Shown piece after piece: positions 8,537 to 61,480 of a stretch of DNA of 64,000 nucleotides; position 1 is the stretch's first letter; every line of letters begins with the position of its first letter. Source of the DNA: Sphyrna mokarran. Lineage: Eukaryota. The notes beneath the pieces were generated by a model. That model saw only the letters and a list, made by a program, of their open reading frames with translations, did no database searches and was not told the DNA's origin. The stretch covers positions 100,626,001-100,690,000 of the forward strand of contig JAGIQG010000003.1 in NCBI GenBank assembly GCA_024679065.1, read 5' to 3'. A program made the translations under genes and the position numbers.

Positions 8537-11390
8537 AAACAATTGTATTTGTCTGAGGGACCAGTCATGTTCAAACTTACGGAACGAAAGTCATTTACAA
8601 ACAGCACACAAATGAATGCTACCTTGAAGCAAATTGAGTACGCTTGATGAGAAGCTATTCACTACAGTTTTCATTTCACAGGAGAAGGAGAATTAATAAC
8701 TTATTGTTCCTGCAGGCACAAGAGTTGAGAAGATTCTACAGATAAATTTTGCAAACAGTAAATTGGTAGTGAATAACTTGTTATACTGCAGCTTGAAATA
8801 ATATGTAGGAAAATTTGGAATAAGCATTTCTCTAGTCATTAAATACTTACATTTTAAATGTATTGGCAGAAAACATCCATGTAAACTTGACCAGAGAATG
8901 CCTTACCCGTTGTTGATATGACAACTGTATTGTTTATTGAATAAAGCTTCTTGTAAAATTTCTGTTATTCCTCTCCCAGTAAATATCAACTTCCACTTTA
9001 AGAAAGTCATTAGCAGGGATTAAATACTTGAAAATGTAAACAGATAGCTGTCTAAACATCTAATATATATTTTGCTGACTGCACATCAACCTTCAGATTA
9101 CTATAGGAAAATTTATTGTCATATGGCGGTACCATGAACTGTCTGTAACTGAAGTTTCCCAAATTCTATTTTGTAAACACTTATTATTATGAGTTATAGA
9201 GTTGGATAGATAACAGAATGCACGTTTAGAAAATTACAATTTATTCAAATTTTATATAGTGAACTCGTGCAACAAATTGCATGCAGCTTAGCAAAGTATC
9301 CCCATTTCAATAGTTAAATAAATTATAAATTTGGAGACGATTGAGTATGAAAATATAGTTCAATATTTTACTTCCACAATGGTATAAATATTTTTATCAT
9401 GGAAACCATTAGACTTCACAAATTCTGGTATCCAGAACCCTCATTACTCTGGGGACAATAAAATCTGCAGAAGTGCATTTTAAATCAATATTTGCTCAGT
9501 GGAATTCTATTAAATTTACTTCAATTCCTTACTTGTATGACATAACAAAGAACATTTCCTATCGTTTTTCTTTTTTTATTATTATAACAGAATAGTGTAT
9601 CTTAGAACATTGACAATTGTCACACATTTAACAAGATTACTAGAAATTGTGAGTGTTTGATGAACAATACGGAAATTCTCAATGATTTATCATAAATGTT
9701 ACATCCAATGAGTTTATATGTGGAATCACAGGCTAAATTTGTGAGATTTTAACTTCAAGCGCCAGAAAAGTAAATTTGCAATCACTTACGTCCACATACA
9801 TTCAACCATTTTATAAAGTGGTTTCATGGTACCTTCTGTCAGAAGACTGTTTTCTGATTGATGCACAGATTTATTAACCTTGAAGTATTGTTTAACTTGC
9901 GAAAGATATGCAATCCTGGTTTTGCAGTCCCAGTGGTCTTTGTTGTATCAGATGTTAAAGAGTGTTTCCTTAAATAGAGACCAGAGAAAGAAATAGTGAT
10001 GGTGTTCATTCAATTGTGGAACCTTTTGACATATTTGTAAGCATGTAAGGACAAAAGATGATAGATGGCTACCAGATTGAATTGCCTATCTTTTATTGGT
10101 AGACTTAATTTTCATTATTTATGGATACATCAATACATCCAGGTCCAATATTGTTACCAGCCTGGTGATACAATTAAACCAACAAGTGACTGTAAAAACA
10201 GTGCTAAACAAATAGAGAGACAGAAACCCTTAGTTTTAATGTCACTACTCTTGTTTTTTTAAATCTCTGTTGTGAAGCTGAATTTTTATTATGCGTGTGC
10301 ACTGATATACAAACTCTTCCCTCTCCATGTCTCTTCCCTCCATTTTCCATTTATCAGCTAGACAGTGAGTGATCTCAAACTAATTGGAGAGTAACCAGCA
10401 CAACCGTAATTGTACACATTACCTGAGTCATGGGGAGCTTAATTCTAACCTAATTCATGCCATGAAATTCCTCAGAATTCCACTATGACTACGTAAAGGC
10501 TCATCAGAAGACTACAGGTCCCTGTATTTCAGTCACTCTTATAAGGTGTTATATCCTCGGATTATCCTTTACCAAGCTAATATTGTTAGGGAGACAGTTC
10601 TGGAAACACATGCTCCTAAACTCTGGGCTCCTGCTTCCTTGACTTTAGTCACGTTGTGTTGTTATTGTCTAACATGCTAAGTGAGATGATGCATGGTGGG
10701 GCCCTGCTGAAGACAAAGTTACCTTAGATCTTGGGAAAAAGAAACAGATTGTCTCTTTGTGCAAGCAATACTAAGGAGATATGATATTTATTCACAGATC
10801 TCAAGTCGGTAGAGCACCTGAATAGGATAGTTGAGAAGGTGTTTGGGACACTGACTTTTATCAATTGTGGCGTTCAGTATAAGAACAAGGAGGTAATGGT
10901 GGAGTAATACAGAGTGTTGGTTAAGCCATGGCTGGAGTATTGTGTGCAGTTCTGGTCACCTCACTGTAGGAAGAATGTGATAACATTAGAGAGGGTACAG
11001 AGGAAATCAACCAGGATATTGTCTGGGATGGGACATTTGAGTTTCAAAGAGAGACTAGATAGACTTGTATTCTCTTTAGAGCAGAGAATTCTGAGGGGGG
11101 ACATGATTGAGGTGTATAATATTATGAGGGCTATGGTCGGGCTGAGTGAGGAGCAGCTGTTCCCCTTGATTAAGGGGTCAATGACAAGGGGACATAGTTT
11201 TAGGATAAGGGGCAGCAAATTCCGAGGTGATTTGAGAAAAAAATTCACTCAGAGGGCGATGGGAATCTGGAATGTCTTGCCTGGGAAAGTAATGGAGATG
11301 AGGTAGAGATGCCAGCGTTGGACTGGGGTAAACACAGTAAGAAGTCTGACAGCAGCAGATTTAAGTCCAACGGCTTTATTTGATAGTAAA

Positions 11391-11428
11391 CTCACAAGCT
11401 TTCGAGGTTATTCTCTTCGTCAGGTGAA
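11391..11428 (-). ncRNA. Minimal type I hammerhead ribozyme motif (PLE type)
   Basis: Minus strand reads UUCAC-CUGACGA-A-GAG(AAUAAC)CUC-GAAA-GC-UU-GUGAG. Core intact, stem I UUCAC/GUGAG, palindromic AAGCUU stem III. Confidence 0.8.
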
Positions 11429-11555
11429 TGAGGTGTCCTGGTCTCAAACGGCACATAAAACAACACAGACAGTTTACAGATTACTATAAACTGTAAACAG
11501 TAATCTGTAAACTGCCTGTGCTGTTATATGTGCTGTTTGAAACCAGAACACCTCA

Positions 11556-11593
11556 TTCACCCGATGAAGAGGATAACCTCGAAAGCTTGTGAG
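11556..11593 (+). ncRNA. Hammerhead motif, one core substitution (CCGAUGA)
   Basis: ttcac-ccgatga-a-gagg(ataa)cctc-gaaa-gctt-gtgag. Confidence 0.7.
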
Positions 11594-12759
11594 TTTACTA
11601 TCAAATAAATTGGTTGGAATTAAACCTGGTGTTGTCAGACTTCTTAAAGTTGTGGAGGGCAGAAACTTCTACAACTTTTAAAAAATATTTGGATGAACAC
11701 TTGAAACATCATAATATTCGAAGGTGTGCAGGAAAATGAGCTGAGAATGCCTTTAGCAGTAGCTAATGAATGGAGGATGCATTACTGAGCTGTATGACTA
11801 TGATCCTATATGATAAGCCTTGGGAAAATATGGGATTTCTCCCCCAGTGGTAGCACACAGTATGTTTTAGAACAAAGAATAAAGAACATGATTGCATCAG
11901 GCAGATTGATGCCTAAGATACACTGGAAGTGGTGTTAACTGCTATGCCAAAGCTTGACTTCCTGTTTGCTTCACAAGCTTTCAATCTGGTTGCATTGGAG
12001 TGCACAGATTGCAGCAGTCTCCTTGCATCACAGCTCACAGGTTTTTCTGGTTTTAATGTTTAACCATGGATCTCGCAGGCTAGAGATCCTGTAGATGACA
12101 AGTAGAAGCAAAAAAATGCACCTTTCCACCTTTTTATTCATGTGAGATGAGAAGTTCTCGGTTGAGCTGTTTGCTTGGTCCTGGTGCCTCATCATGGAGA
12201 AAGCGTGGTGTTCTGTCTGCTTATTCAATTTATGTGTATTTCATGCTCTTCAATGCACAGCCCTATAACTGCATTAGTAACTGTTGAGTGTGCAGCAGAA
12301 CATATTGCTACTTAAAGAAAGATAGAAATGTGACTAGTAGTGATGTGAAAAGTTACACAGAGGATAGTAATATAAGGGAAATGATGAAGAATCTGAACAA
12401 TAGATTGGAGGAGAGCATTTTGTCCATGTTAAAATGCCACACATGGATAACGTCAACAAACCTGGACAAAGAAAATATAATTTTTTTCATGATAATGCTT
12501 TCTCAATTATTATATTTAATTGCTTTCTGTTCTAATGATCAAATACATGGCTAATGGCAAAATATAAAAATGTAAGGAATGATAAGAAGTTGTGTAATCA
12601 GATATGTCAGTTAATAACAACTGAGAGGAACTGATTCTGTGGGAGCGGATAATGTTATTTTGTGCAAATGACCACCATGAGTTTATGATGCCCACCAGAT
12701 CAACATAGAAAAGAAAATGTACTCTACGAAGAGATAAAAAAGACACATGGAATTAGGAA

Positions 12760-13344: not shown

Positions 13345-14385
13345 TTGGCAGGAAAACTGATCTAAATCCCAGTTGTTTTGGCAGTTCAGCTTCTCACCTG
13401 AATCTCCGCACTCTGTGCATTGCAGAGGTTCCAGTTGTGAATCTCACTAAAAATCCAAGGGGCGGGACCTATTTGCCCCAGAGTCTGACAGCCCTGGAAA
13501 TCTGTGCATGTGCAGCGATTCCAATCTTTCAGAATACCCATTTGTTGGCCAGCCTGCTCGCTGGCCAGCTTGGCACCAGTTCACCAGTGCTGTCCCTCCA
13601 GACCCCCCGATGGGGTGATCGCAATCCAACAACAATTCCCAGGCCAGCTCTGACTATCCACCCAGCCCTGGACTGGCCCGATGTCCAGCCCCCATCTCCT
13701 CACCCCAACAGACTCCTCTCCCCCCAGCTGACCCCCTCCAAGAGGCAGACCTCCTGGCAGACTAACTACCCAGCCCGCCCCAATCACTGCCCTCCCTCTA
13801 TCCCACCATGATCCTGTTTGCAGAGTGGCAGCAGGACCCCTGCATCCCCACAGATTGCCCCTCAGTCCTACCCACAATAGCCCTCACACTTTGGCACTGC
13901 CCAATGCCTACTTGGGCAGTGCCAAAGTGCCCCTAGGCATGGACATTTTGCCCTTGGATAGTGCTGAGGATACAGAACTGACATTGTCAGGGTGTCCATG
14001 CCCAGGGGGCACCCTCCACCATCCAATAACCTGGGGGGCCCCGATTGCCCCCCTTCATTCCGACGGGATCTCCCACTACTTCCCCAAATGTGGGGAGCTA
14101 ATCTGAATCCACTCCTGGAAGGGTGGGGAATTAGGTTCGGGAGCTGAAAGTTCCCAATAATAACTTGCTAAATATATTTGAAATACATTTAAAAAAGATT
14201 CAAATGACTTACCTGCCTTCCCGCCAGTTCCCAGCATGGTCTGAATGGCGATTGTTTATTGGCTCTGGGATATGCGCATGCATTCCTGGTGCACACGCAA
14301 TTCCCAGAACAAGGCCAGCAACATGCGTCTCCCATCTCGATCTATCAGAAAAGTTGTGAATCACGTTGGGAGCATCGCGGCCTAA
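13345..14385. mobile_element. GC-rich non-autonomous DNA transposon, probably PIF/Harbinger-derived
   Basis: Abrupt GC/CpG-rich block with C-rich cccccgatc-type motifs and ggcactgcc/ggcagtgcc palindromes. Ends gggagcatcgcggcc-taa. Related blocks occur at 30.4-31.2 kb and 54.5-55.4 kb. Confidence 0.55.
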
Positions 14386-26454: not shown

Positions 26455-26768
26455 GGTGACACTGTGGCACAGTGACTAGCGCCGCCTCACAGTAATAGGG
26501 ATCCAAATTCAATTCTTCTTTTGCCTGACTGTGTGGAGTTTGCACATTCTTCCCATTTCTGCATGGATTTCCTTCGGGTGCTATGGTTTCTTCCTGCAGT
26601 CCATACATGTGCAGGTTAGGTTGATTGGATATGCTAAATTCCCCTTAGTGTCAGGGGGATTAGCAGGGTAAATATGAGAGGTTGTGGAAGTAGGGTCTGG
26701 GTGTGATTGCTGTTGTTGCAAGCTTGATGAGCCTAATGACCTATTTTTGCACTGTAGGGATTCTATTT
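26455..26768 (+). mobile_element. HE1 V-SINE
   Basis: gtggcacagtgactagcgccgcctcacag...tgtgtggagtttgcacattct...gcactgtagggattctat. Confidence 0.92.
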
Positions 26769-26880
26769 TGGAGACCAGAACACCTCATTCACCTGACGAA
26801 GGCACAAACACCAAAAGCTAGCAAGTTTAATATCAAATAAATCGGTTGGATTTAAAATTGGTGTTGCCAGACTCTTACTG
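26768..26880 (+). mobile_element. PLE pLTR fragment (tail-less) with degenerate hammerhead
   Basis: cacctcattcacctgacgaaggc...aaagctagc...tatcaaataaatcggttgga, homologous to 11540-11646. Confidence 0.85.
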
Positions 26881-26894
26881 ACTCTATGAATGTA

Positions 26895-27070
26895 AGAACT
26901 CAGTAAGAATTTAGCAACACCAATTTTAAATCCAACCGATTTATTTGATAGTAAAATTGCGAGCTTTCAACACTCTGGTCTTCGTCAGGCAAATGCAGTG
27001 TGAGATTTAAAATTGGTGTTGCTAAATTCTTACTGAGTTCTTACTACTCCAGTCCAACGCCGGCATCTTT
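26895..27070 (+). mobile_element. Short PLE fold-back element with 14-bp TSD
   Basis: Direct repeat actctatgaatgta at 26881-26894 and 27071-27084. Perfect 40-bp inverted repeat 26893-26932 / 27004-27043. 3' tail ccagtccaacgccggcatc. Confidence 0.88.
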
Positions 27071-28205
27071 ACTCTATGAATGTAGGCATGGAATGCTTCC
27101 ATGTCACTTTTTGTAGAGGTAGTAACAAAGCTATGATTCTTCTTTTATTAACTTGGAACTAATTGCCACCATAATTCCATTAATTGTCCTGCTCCTACTA
27201 ATAGATGAATTGCTAATCATGCATGCATAAATACATATGTGTTGCTCCAATTTTTATGTCCTACTTATACAAGTATAGTGAGCTGAGGGCTGTGTTAGTG
27301 ATTTGGAAATGCTTTTAGAATGGAAAAAAAAATCTTTATCGTGACAGAAGGGTTTTTTTCTGAAGAGAGATGGAACAGCCTATCCCTTAAAGGTGCTGTG
27401 AAAACCATGGATAATTTGGATTGCCAGAAGAAGGAGAGAGTGAAGATCATGGGTAACTTGGTTTGCCAGAGGAAGAAGAAAAGGTTATTAAGGCTAGATC
27501 TACACTGAACTCAGTGAAAATTCAATCTGATATGAGTAGGCCTCTTGATGTGGTCTCATGTCTCAGAGCTTTAATGTGTCCAGTGTTCCCATTGCCACAC
27601 TGATGTGCACCCAAAATTACTTCTCAGTGATGCAAAAGTGGCAACGTATACTGAATCGATTTCTTTTTATCTGACTGACTGAAAATCTCTCTCTGCTTTT
27701 AAAATTTGAGATTTCACTGTTCTTTGAAGTAACAAGGCTCAGAATGCATCACCCACAGCAACACAGTTAAATTGACCAAACTGAAGGAACTTGTATAGAG
27801 ATAATAATTCAGAACAAAATCAATTGACACTTGGAAAAGCACGGGCTAATAAAATTAGGGTCAGTTTGACAAAATTCATTAGGAATTTCACTTGGAAGTG
27901 TGTGAAATCATATGAGAAAACATCAGACTCGAATTTCGATGTCACTGCGCACTGACACAATATTTCTGTCGGTGTGTGGGTGAGAATGGAAAGTGCGCAC
28001 ACCGACAATCAAACAGGCCATTTAGCCCATAAAGGGGTCAATTGGATGCAATTTTACATTGCTCATTTGCTTTTTTAGCTATTGGGCAATCTGATTGCCC
28101 AGACAGCCTTTGTGTTTTCACTGAAACCCCAACCCACTGCCAATATCTGGGCTGAAATAAAATTTTGAAAGATGTCTAAGGACTGAGAATTGTGTTTGAA
28201 AAAGC

Positions 28206-28603
28206 ATGATGTAGAGATGCTGGTGTTGGACTGGGTAAACACAGTAAAGTAGTCTTACAACACCAGGTTGAAGTCCAACAAGTTTATTTGGTAGCAAGTG
28301 CCACTAGCTTTCAGAGCGCTGCTCCTTCGTCAGGTGAGTGGGGATTTCTGATCACAAATGGGACATATAAAGGCACAAACTCAGTTTACAGAATGTTGAT
28401 TAGAATGAAAGTTTTTACAGCTAATCAGTTAGCTTTATAGTTGCATTCTAATCAGTATTCTGTAAACTGAGTGTGTGCTTTTATATGTCCCATTTGTGAT
28501 CAGAAATCCCCACTCACCTGACGAAGGAACAGTTCTCCAAAAGCTAATGGTGTTTGTTATCAAATAAACTTTTTGGACTTTATCCTGGTGTTATGAGACT
28601 TAC
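28206..28603 (-). mobile_element. PLE pLTR fold-back element with 13-bp TSD
   Basis: TSD tttgaaaaagcat at 28195-28207 and 28604-28616. Arms about 28249-28407 and 28444-28603 are inverted. The extra tail is on the left arm only. Confidence 0.92.
28301..28340 (-). ncRNA. Minimal type I hammerhead ribozyme motif
   Basis: Minus strand reads CAC-CUGACGA-A-GGAGC(AGC)GCUCU-GAAA-GC-UA-GUG; core intact. Confidence 0.8.
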
Positions 28604-29265: not shown

Positions 29266-29395
29266 ATGATGTGGAGATGCTGATTTTGGACTGGGATGAG
29301 CATAGTAAGAAGTCTCACAATACCAGGTTAAAGTCCAACAGGTTTATTTAGAATCACAAACTTTTGGAGTGCTGCCCCTTCATCAGGTGAGTGTC
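29266..29395 (-). mobile_element. PLE pLTR 3' fragment with tail and degenerate hammerhead
   Basis: atgatgtggagatgc...caggttaaagtccaacaggtttatt...ccttcatcaggtgag. Confidence 0.88.
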
Positions 29396-29705: not shown

Positions 29706-29880
29706 TGTGTGTGTGTGTGTGCATATATATGTGTGTGTATATATATTATATATGCCCTGCTTATGAACTGAAATCCTACTCGCCGCCTGACAAAGGAGCA
29801 GTGAGCGCTCAGAAAGCTAGTAGATTTGTTACCCAATAAACCTGTTGGACTTTAACTTGGTGTTGTGAGATTTCTTATTG
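29706..29880 (+). mobile_element. PLE pLTR fragment with (TG)n/(TA)n expansion at its 5' side
   Basis: cctgacaaaggagcagtgagcgctcagaaagctag...aataaacctgttggactttaac. The microsatellite sits where the 57075-57095 copy has gtgtgtgtctatatatgccctg. Confidence 0.85.
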
Positions 29881-30379
29881 TAAATATAAGGACCCAGGGC
29901 TGTACAATTAAAGGAGGTCAGCTGGCCTCAGTCTTGGTCATGTAATACTGATTTTAGTTTATTGAATGAGCTCCTCTTGTTGAAATCATCATGTTGTAAC
30001 AATTAATGTGTAGGCCATTAACATTATTATCTGAGATTTGGATTCGCAAAGGATTATCTTTGTTTGAAATTGGCTGGAATAGACTGGCCATCTGCTGGGC
30101 CATTGTGATAGCTTGGCTGAAATGTCTGTTCCATGCAAAGAGTGTTTCATTCCATGGCTGGGATTCTTCTGGCTTGAGCTGCGCAGCAGGCTGAGAGACA
30201 ACTGCAGGAGACCTTTCGTGAGGTTTGTGCCTCCCAAGCACTTTTTCTTAGCGCAATCAGCTCTGTTCTGACAACTGGTGCATAGCTGATTACTGTATGG
30301 AAATGTCATGGAAATTGACATTTCAATATGAATGGCAGACTGGAGCTGTATTCTCTGAACCTGGTCATGCTTCTCCTCA

Positions 30380-56897: not shown

Positions 56898-57231
56898 CCA
56901 TATGTGTGGGTACCTGTGATCATTTAGTCTGTGCTTGCAAAATCTTACTAACCCCCTGGCTTGAGACAATTCATAACATTTTAACCTGTGCTTAACTCTC
57001 TCTCCACTCACATTATCTGCACCTATAATAACTTGATTACTGTCAAGACTCGAATCCAATCATTATCTGTAAATTGAGTGTGTGTCTATATATGCCCTGT
57101 TTGTGAACTCTCTACTCACCTGACAAAGGAGCAGTGTACCCAAAAGCTCTATAAACCCGTTGGACTTTAACCTGGTGTTGTGAAAGTTTTTAACTATGCC
57201 TATCCCAGTCCAATACCAGCATCTCCACATC
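56898..57231 (+). mobile_element. PLE pLTR with tail and 13-bp TSD
   Basis: gtgatttatatta at 56885-56897 and 57232-57244; cacctgacaaaggagcag...ccagtccaataccagcatctccacatc. Confidence 0.9.
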
Positions 57232-58812: not shown

Positions 58813-59072
58813 TCATAGGTTAGAGAGATTAGCATGTGAAATATGTAGGGATATGGGGGTAAGACCTGGGTGGGATTGTCGTCGGTGCAGACTCGATGGG
58901 CCAAATGGCTTCTTTCTGCACTATAGGGTTTCTATGTTTCTAAAGGAGCCTTGAAATGTTCTATAAGTTTCTGGAAGAACCCAGATCGAATAATTTAAAA
59001 TGAATTTTCCTGGGACACTCCTGATATCTACTGTAATTCGCTGCCTATGCTAATAATGTTCATTTTGTTCCA

Positions 59073-59184
59073 CAGTAAGAGGTCTCACAACACCAGGTTA
59101 AAGTCCAACAGGTTTATTTGGTGGCAAACGCCACTAGTTTTTGAGGCAGTGCTCCTTCATCAGGGAAGTGGGAACTCTGATTTT
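59073..59184 (-). mobile_element. Short PLE pLTR fragment with 16-bp TSD (1 mismatch)
   Basis: tgttcattttgttcca at 59057-59072 and tgtttattttgttcca at 59185-59200. Confidence 0.85.
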
Positions 59185-59811: not shown

Positions 59812-59975
59812 CATGATGTGGAGTTGCCGGCATTGGACTGAGGTGGGCACAGTAAGAAATCTCACAACACCAGGTTAAAGTTCAACAGGTTTATTTGGTA
59901 TCACGAACTTTCAGAGTGCTGCTCCTTCATCAGATGAGTGGGCATATATAGACATAGGCTCAATTGCAAAATTGT
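59812..59975 (-). mobile_element. PLE pLTR fragment with tail; hammerhead core intact
   Basis: Minus strand 59901-59938 reads CAU-CUGAUGA-A-GGAGCAGCACUCU-GAAA-GU-UC-GUG. Confidence 0.88.
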
Positions 59976-61342: not shown

Positions 61343-61480
61343 CATAATATGGAGATGCCAGCATTGGATTGGGATAAACATAGCAAGAAGTCTCACAACA
61401 TCAGGTTAAAGTCCAACAGGTTTATTTAGTAGCAAAAGCCACTAGCTTTCGGAGTGTGCTCCTTTGTCAGGTGAGTTGTC
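61343..61480 (-). mobile_element. PLE pLTR fragment with tail; hammerhead with one core change
   Basis: Minus strand reads cac-ctgacaa-aggagcacactcc-gaaa-gcta-gtg. Confidence 0.88.

Follow-up and report, generated by a model that had tools for sequence, protein, structure and literature searches.

A hairpin with two hammerhead motifs in a hammerhead-shark genome: probably a decayed Penelope-like insertion of two head-to-head element ends

The hairpin at 11298-11646 of the window (the whole 64,000-nt stretch of Sphyrna mokarran DNA that was analysed) is best read as a short, decayed insertion made of two head-to-head 3' ends of a Penelope-like element (PLE), likely produced by priming at both strands of the target. 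We put the probability of this reading at roughly 80%. It rests on the anatomy of the hairpin and its insertion site, on the element family to which its arms belong, and on a survey of other fold-back copies in the genome.

The hairpin and its insertion site

The following features are referred to throughout, with positions counted in the window:

10787-11730 (limits approximate), plus strand: older LINE-like repeat split by the insertion, from blast matches of the left flank
11286-11297, plus strand: left target-site duplication, 12 bp, 10 of 12 bases identical to 11646-11657
11298-11337, minus strand: 3' tail of the element, on one arm only, ending at the position of the ORF start codon of long copies
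11298-11485, sense on the minus strand: tail-bearing arm, by sequence identity the last 188 nt of a PLE
11390-11430, minus strand: minimal type I hammerhead motif, core intact, three of four stem II pairs
11486-11498, no strand: head-to-head junction (loop), with about 8 extra bases
11499-11646, sense on the plus strand: tail-less arm, same element end, which breaks off about 37 nt before the end of the tail would be reached
11554-11594, plus strand: second hammerhead motif, U-to-C at core position 4
11646-11657, plus strand: right target-site duplication, one base common with the element end
26768-27072, 28206-28601, 29266-29393 and 29812-29881: older family pieces, 72-81% identity, of which 28206-28601 is a second fold-back
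57151-57231, 59071-59164, 59813-59900 and 61352-61474: further older family pieces, 72-81% identity

An earlier note on this DNA, made from the sequence alone, described two inverted arms of about 148 bp around a 13-nt loop and an extra tail of about 40 nt on one arm, and both descriptions hold. The arms (11338-11485 and 11499-11646) are 148 nt each, lie 13 nt apart and are complementary at 132 of 148 positions (89%), and the 40-nt tail is restricted to the left arm. Counted on the element end, the arms reach positions 183 and 188. The roughly 8 extra bases at the junction repeat a 7-mer found at 11508 and are likely a locally templated insert. RNA folding gives -226.9 and -230.9 kcal/mol for the two polarities (z-scores of -23 and -29 relative to 100 shuffled sequences). 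The arms are head-to-head; a head-to-tail tandem repeat was looked for at the hairpin and none was found. Elsewhere in the window, positions 13887-13929 form a perfect 18-bp inverted repeat with a 7-nt loop, which has no relation to the PLE.

The left flank of the host repeat gave 80 blast matches among the fetched loci, three of which are contiguous over the insertion site (~71%), i.e., three homologous repeats run uninterrupted across it with a single copy of the target. Given this single copy and the duplication around the hairpin, the hairpin therefore arrived by insertion into an older repeat. Translation of the latter gives a LINE-like C-terminus with a protein motif that suggests CR1-type; a Pfam search of its 130-aa piece returned no match. 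The earlier placement of the hairpin inside a CR1, between flanks resembling target-site duplications, thus stands for the 12-bp duplication and the older repeat, with CR1 as a tentative name.

The parent element and its hammerhead

The tail-bearing arm is 87-91% identical to the 3' ends of three ORF-bearing copies with broken frames (L034, L053 and L123), and longer copies of the family run on into an ORF. The parent-type copy L130 has a single ORF with an 813-aa open frame; it belongs to a sister subfamily, 75-77% identical to the hairpin arms, and the closer copies have broken frames. Its protein matches RVT_1 in Pfam (E 5e-9) and has no direct GIY-YIG match there; the C-terminal part can be aligned with the region that Pfam assigns to GIY-YIG in P0023, a 34% identical relative. 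Ahead of the endonuclease lies a C-X4-C-X2-C linker, which fits the CX2-5CxxC motif that PMC8557442 defines between RT and endonuclease for the Neptune clade and describes as common to Nematis. The linker points to a Neptune-type element rather than Poseidon. Among named proteins, the closest ones come from sharks (83-85% identity), and a search of solved structures with the parent protein gave no match. At L130 (2345-4786 on the minus strand, G000:C224), the open frame is accompanied by a 1.6-kb inverted arm at 97%, and this copy is young and possibly recently active.

Copies are numerous: in the 2.77-Gb genome, a 37-nt tail pattern has 2,410 exact matches and a 33-nt pLTR pattern has 4,415, with 0 in the reversed control for each. 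About ten older pieces of the same family lie in the window itself. The ORF start codon marks the end of the element's tail, and a partial unit of 107-1,106 nt precedes the ORF in 21 of 29 ORF-start copies (29 of 30 loci matched). The family thus combines an ORF with RT and GIY-YIG, pLTRs in partial tandem or inverted, a tail of 30-40 bp and a hammerhead motif in the pLTR, and sequence comparison places the hairpin as the 3' end of a high-copy EN+ PLE. A Penelope-like origin with inverted pLTRs, tail and minimal hammerhead had been suggested before, and the family copies and the parent ORF bear it out.

There is a hammerhead motif on each strand of the hairpin, as the earlier note had it. The minus strand has an intact CUGACGA core at 11423-11417 with GAAAGCUU, and the plus strand has the variant CCGAUGA at 11561 with GAAAGCUU; the one qualification is that the minus-strand stem II forms three of its four pairs. 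Hammerhead rules predict cuts between 11396 and 11395 on the minus strand and between 11588 and 11589 on the plus strand. Among 96 motifs in the family's pLTRs, core position 4 is T in 90 and C in 3, and 43 have both an intact core and a 3-bp stem II. For the 72 motifs of the commonest length, the three stem II pairs are kept in 66, 66 and 38, versus 55, 38 and 17 after shuffling; the copies are related by descent, so these counts are not a probability. Stem II covaries across the family, and the hammerhead fold was therefore kept in active ancestors.

In the hairpin, both folds are predicted to be shut. RNA folding gives formed stem II pairs a probability of 0.73-0.81 in single arms, and stems I and II have a probability of 0.0 in the full rod of either polarity. 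The hammerhead would be paired away because, whichever polarity is read through, the antisense arm is transcribed first. According to PMC4209133, minimal PLE hammerheads have low activity as dimers and none as monomers. Among loci L251-L310, the base before the predicted cut varies by subfamily (U, A or C, with G in scattered copies only), and one subfamily apparently has two extra bases before the cut.

Fold-back copies and the origin of the hairpin

Family copies were sampled without regard to fold-back: of the tail matches listed, the first 100 supplied 92 copies, all from a single contig. An adjacent inverted arm is present in 58, an inverted arm more than 60 nt away in 12, and none in 22. 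The 58 fold-backs are 78-1,647 bp long (median 219) and have 55 distinct junctions. Adding 71 from later loci, some of which were picked by cut-site patterns, gives an enlarged set of 129 with 124 distinct junctions. Such variable junctions support a recurring by-product of PLE insertion, one of two origins that the earlier note had offered. Target duplications of 8-17 bp, mostly 11-14, accompany 43 of the 58 fold-backs, versus 2 of 150 mismatched flank pairs.

The two arms follow a one-tail rule. A tail is found on 0 of the 129 second arms, and when matches were anchored on the pLTR core instead (n = 30), the 23 with a partner represented 20 distinct insertions, every one of which had a single tail. 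The tail continues 4-15 nt into the next ORF start in 14 of 66 arms that could be scored, and copying therefore starts inside a longer RNA. Between the two arms of an insertion, stem II differs by 1.9 letters, versus 5.9 when shuffled (23 insertions; 0 of 10,000 shuffles fell under 3.6), so both arms of an insertion come from one subfamily. Arm lengths are unequal in both directions: among the 58, the tail-less arm is longer by more than 20 nt in 16 and the tail arm is longer in 7, with 1,323 versus 161 nt as the most unequal pair. They are also correlated (Spearman 0.62 in the 58 fold-backs) and lie within 10 nt of each other in 20 of 58, versus 7.0 when shuffled, and in 42 of 129, versus 13.1.

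These data speak to the other origin in the earlier note, a non-autonomous, rod-like family of 350 bp that is transcribed, cleaves itself and moves as a unit, in the manner of a retrozyme or viroid. In its favour, the full 349 bp has about 40 genomic matches at 75-88% (40 scored of 4,373 candidates), and the covariation of stem II would suit such a family. However, a whole-length search favours copies of like size, and the 20 best matches have common outer ends and different loops. The check that the note proposed, a loop junction common to genomic copies, came out against it: with 124 of 129 junctions distinct, none is identical to that of the hairpin, 2 lie within 10 nt of it, and just 13 of 129 fold-backs are 300-400 bp long. 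The hammerhead core is reached by both arms in 16 of 58 fold-backs, by one arm in 13 and by neither in 29; the hairpin has a motif on each strand because both its arms happen to exceed about 128 nt. With no head-to-tail repeat at the locus and both folds predicted shut in the rod as well, we regard a unit-length family as very improbable. Least probable is that the hairpin is kept as a source of small RNAs or for another host function. Its read-through transcript would be strongly double-stranded, and an Rfam search of the locus returned microRNA hairpin models and no hammerhead family, but all of these matches are under the gathering score and arise because of the double-stranded hairpin shape. 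The arms are 11% apart with no bias towards changes that keep the structure (G-U bias is absent among the mismatches in either polarity, 5 vs 6), and the genome holds thousands of similar stubs.

A closer competitor is snap-back, in which one strand primes on itself to make the inverted arm of the same element, and endonuclease resolution leaves the tail. It would account for correlated arm ends that are frequently within 10 nt (183 and 188 in the hairpin) and for the single subfamily of both arms, and it has precedent: self-priming on an antisense template has been proposed for rotifer Penelope copies (PMC3846280), and the tail has been ascribed to endonuclease resolution (PMC8557442). Against it, either arm may hold hundreds of bases that are absent from the other (43 vs 22 of 129; e.g., L034). 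Bases exclusive to either arm mean that one arm cannot always be the copy of the other, and the same follows from either arm being the longer. Snap-back may account for a subset, and as the general origin we consider it unlikely. We infer instead twin priming on one RNA at two start sites.

Under twin priming, the element endonuclease would cut the target on both strands, with about 12 bases between the cuts, and a separate copy of the element RNA would be primed from each of the two ends. From one end, copying would begin where the tail finishes, beside the ORF start of the following unit; from the other, it would begin about 35 nt deeper in the element. The two copies would stop early (after about 185 nt at the hairpin) and be joined by short homology or a templated insert (about 8 nt at the hairpin), after which host repair would fill the second strands. 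The hairpin would then be a dead-end by-product whose arms have drifted apart by 11% since insertion. Several points count against this scheme: two fully independent copies should not yield correlated arm lengths, start sites in the in vitro work of PMC11167929 did not differ between strands, and an inverted partner is lacking for 22 of 92 tail arms. To accommodate the correlation, the scheme needs coupled enzymes, a template end common to both copies, or snap-back for some of the insertions.

We lean slightly towards an obligate form of twin priming, in which one complex serves both nicked strands from one RNA with two fixed start sites, one per strand. Each paired insertion would then receive exactly one tail and two arms from the same subfamily, with lengths that are coupled without being equal. 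If true, this form would take the place of antisense self-priming as the explanation of inverted pLTRs, and the hammerhead-shark genome would hold its fossil record in thousands of stubs. A literature search, with subscription journals, Repbase and supplements outside its scope, found nothing on the shark family or on PLE twin priming.

A template that ends at the hammerhead cut site was also considered and is not supported: 21 of the 29 ORF-start copies run through the site, 4 end near it and 4 are shorter. Mismatch patterns for arms starting at positions 93-96 have 1,440, 1,861, 618 and 545 genome matches, and 30 sampled per pattern and read by eye were mostly subfamily variants or point changes, with 2-7 true ends per sample. 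Where loci had been picked independently of the cut site, the range 88-100 holds the ends of 28 of 157 arms, and these do not peak at 94-95; the arm-end peak at 91-93 in the enlarged set comes from a sample enriched by cut-site patterns and was set aside. Two apparent junction preferences were also discarded as artefacts, a hotspot at position 104 (alignment of the variable stem II) and a junction common to long copies (an inversion inside the query L034 itself). Arm ends in L081-L190 are somewhat dense at reference positions 120-131. These positions mark the 5' edge of the core, and a short self-complementary word located there could link one copy to another; junction 121/127 occurs in three copies.

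Comparison with known systems

The inverted pLTR, the tail, the target duplication and pairs of hammerheads on opposite strands have all been published already, and we regard the hairpin as real but ordinary, decayed debris of a known kind, predicted to be inert. It resembles Pen2/Pen2a of Adineta vaga (PMC3846280; general scheme in PMC8557442), which share the head-to-head inverted, 5'-truncated copy, a one-sided tail of 30-40 bp, the target duplication and partial tandems before full ORFs. The hairpin differs in that its arms are so short that the end repeat alone remains, and the shark family in its target duplications (8-17 bp, against 8-10 bp in the rotifer).

Metazoan PLE minimal hammerheads (Cervera and De la Pena 2014, PMC4209133) resemble those of the shark family: the core lacks a real helix III, GAAA is followed by palindromic positions, a single extra base precedes stem II, the closing pair is G-C, and stem II covaries. 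Stem II is 3-4 bp in the shark family, in contrast to 7-8 bp in Schistosoma. Dual hammerheads on opposite strands, 100-700 bp apart, are reported in the same paper and connected there with truncated PLEs; the main text consulted does not mention sharks.

For mechanism, the relevant system is PAc, a Poseidon element of Anolis (Frangieh et al. 2024, PMC11167929), whose purified protein cuts and extends both strands and uses two internal RNA start sites that bracket the tail. Its RNA template is uncut; comparably, 21 of the 29 shark ORF-start copies continue through the upstream hammerhead. A difference is that the ORF of PAc overlaps both the hammerhead and the tail, whereas the tail of the shark element ends at the start codon. 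In that paper, start sites did not differ between strands in vitro, and the one-tail rule is therefore not yet explained by it. The one-tail rule and the unequal arms constitute a direct prediction for an existing in vitro system, and the thousands of stub ends record Penelope-like insertion, a step that PMC11167929 describes as not yet validated.

Non-LTR retrozymes (PMC7229834; bioRxiv 10.64898/2026.07.22.740005) are likewise non-coding, PLE-derived and equipped with a type I hammerhead. They form head-to-tail tandem units of fixed length (bioRxiv 10.64898/2026.07.22.740005), whereas the hairpin is head-to-head with a variable junction and no tandem array, and its family has no fixed unit length or junction. 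Searches for viroid-like RNAs that combine a rod with a hammerhead will catch such stubs in shark-like genomes. Six public shark gene models (P0011, P0032, P0054, P0072, P0098 and P0101) contain pieces 63-84% identical to the element ORF, which would be mis-annotation or exon capture.
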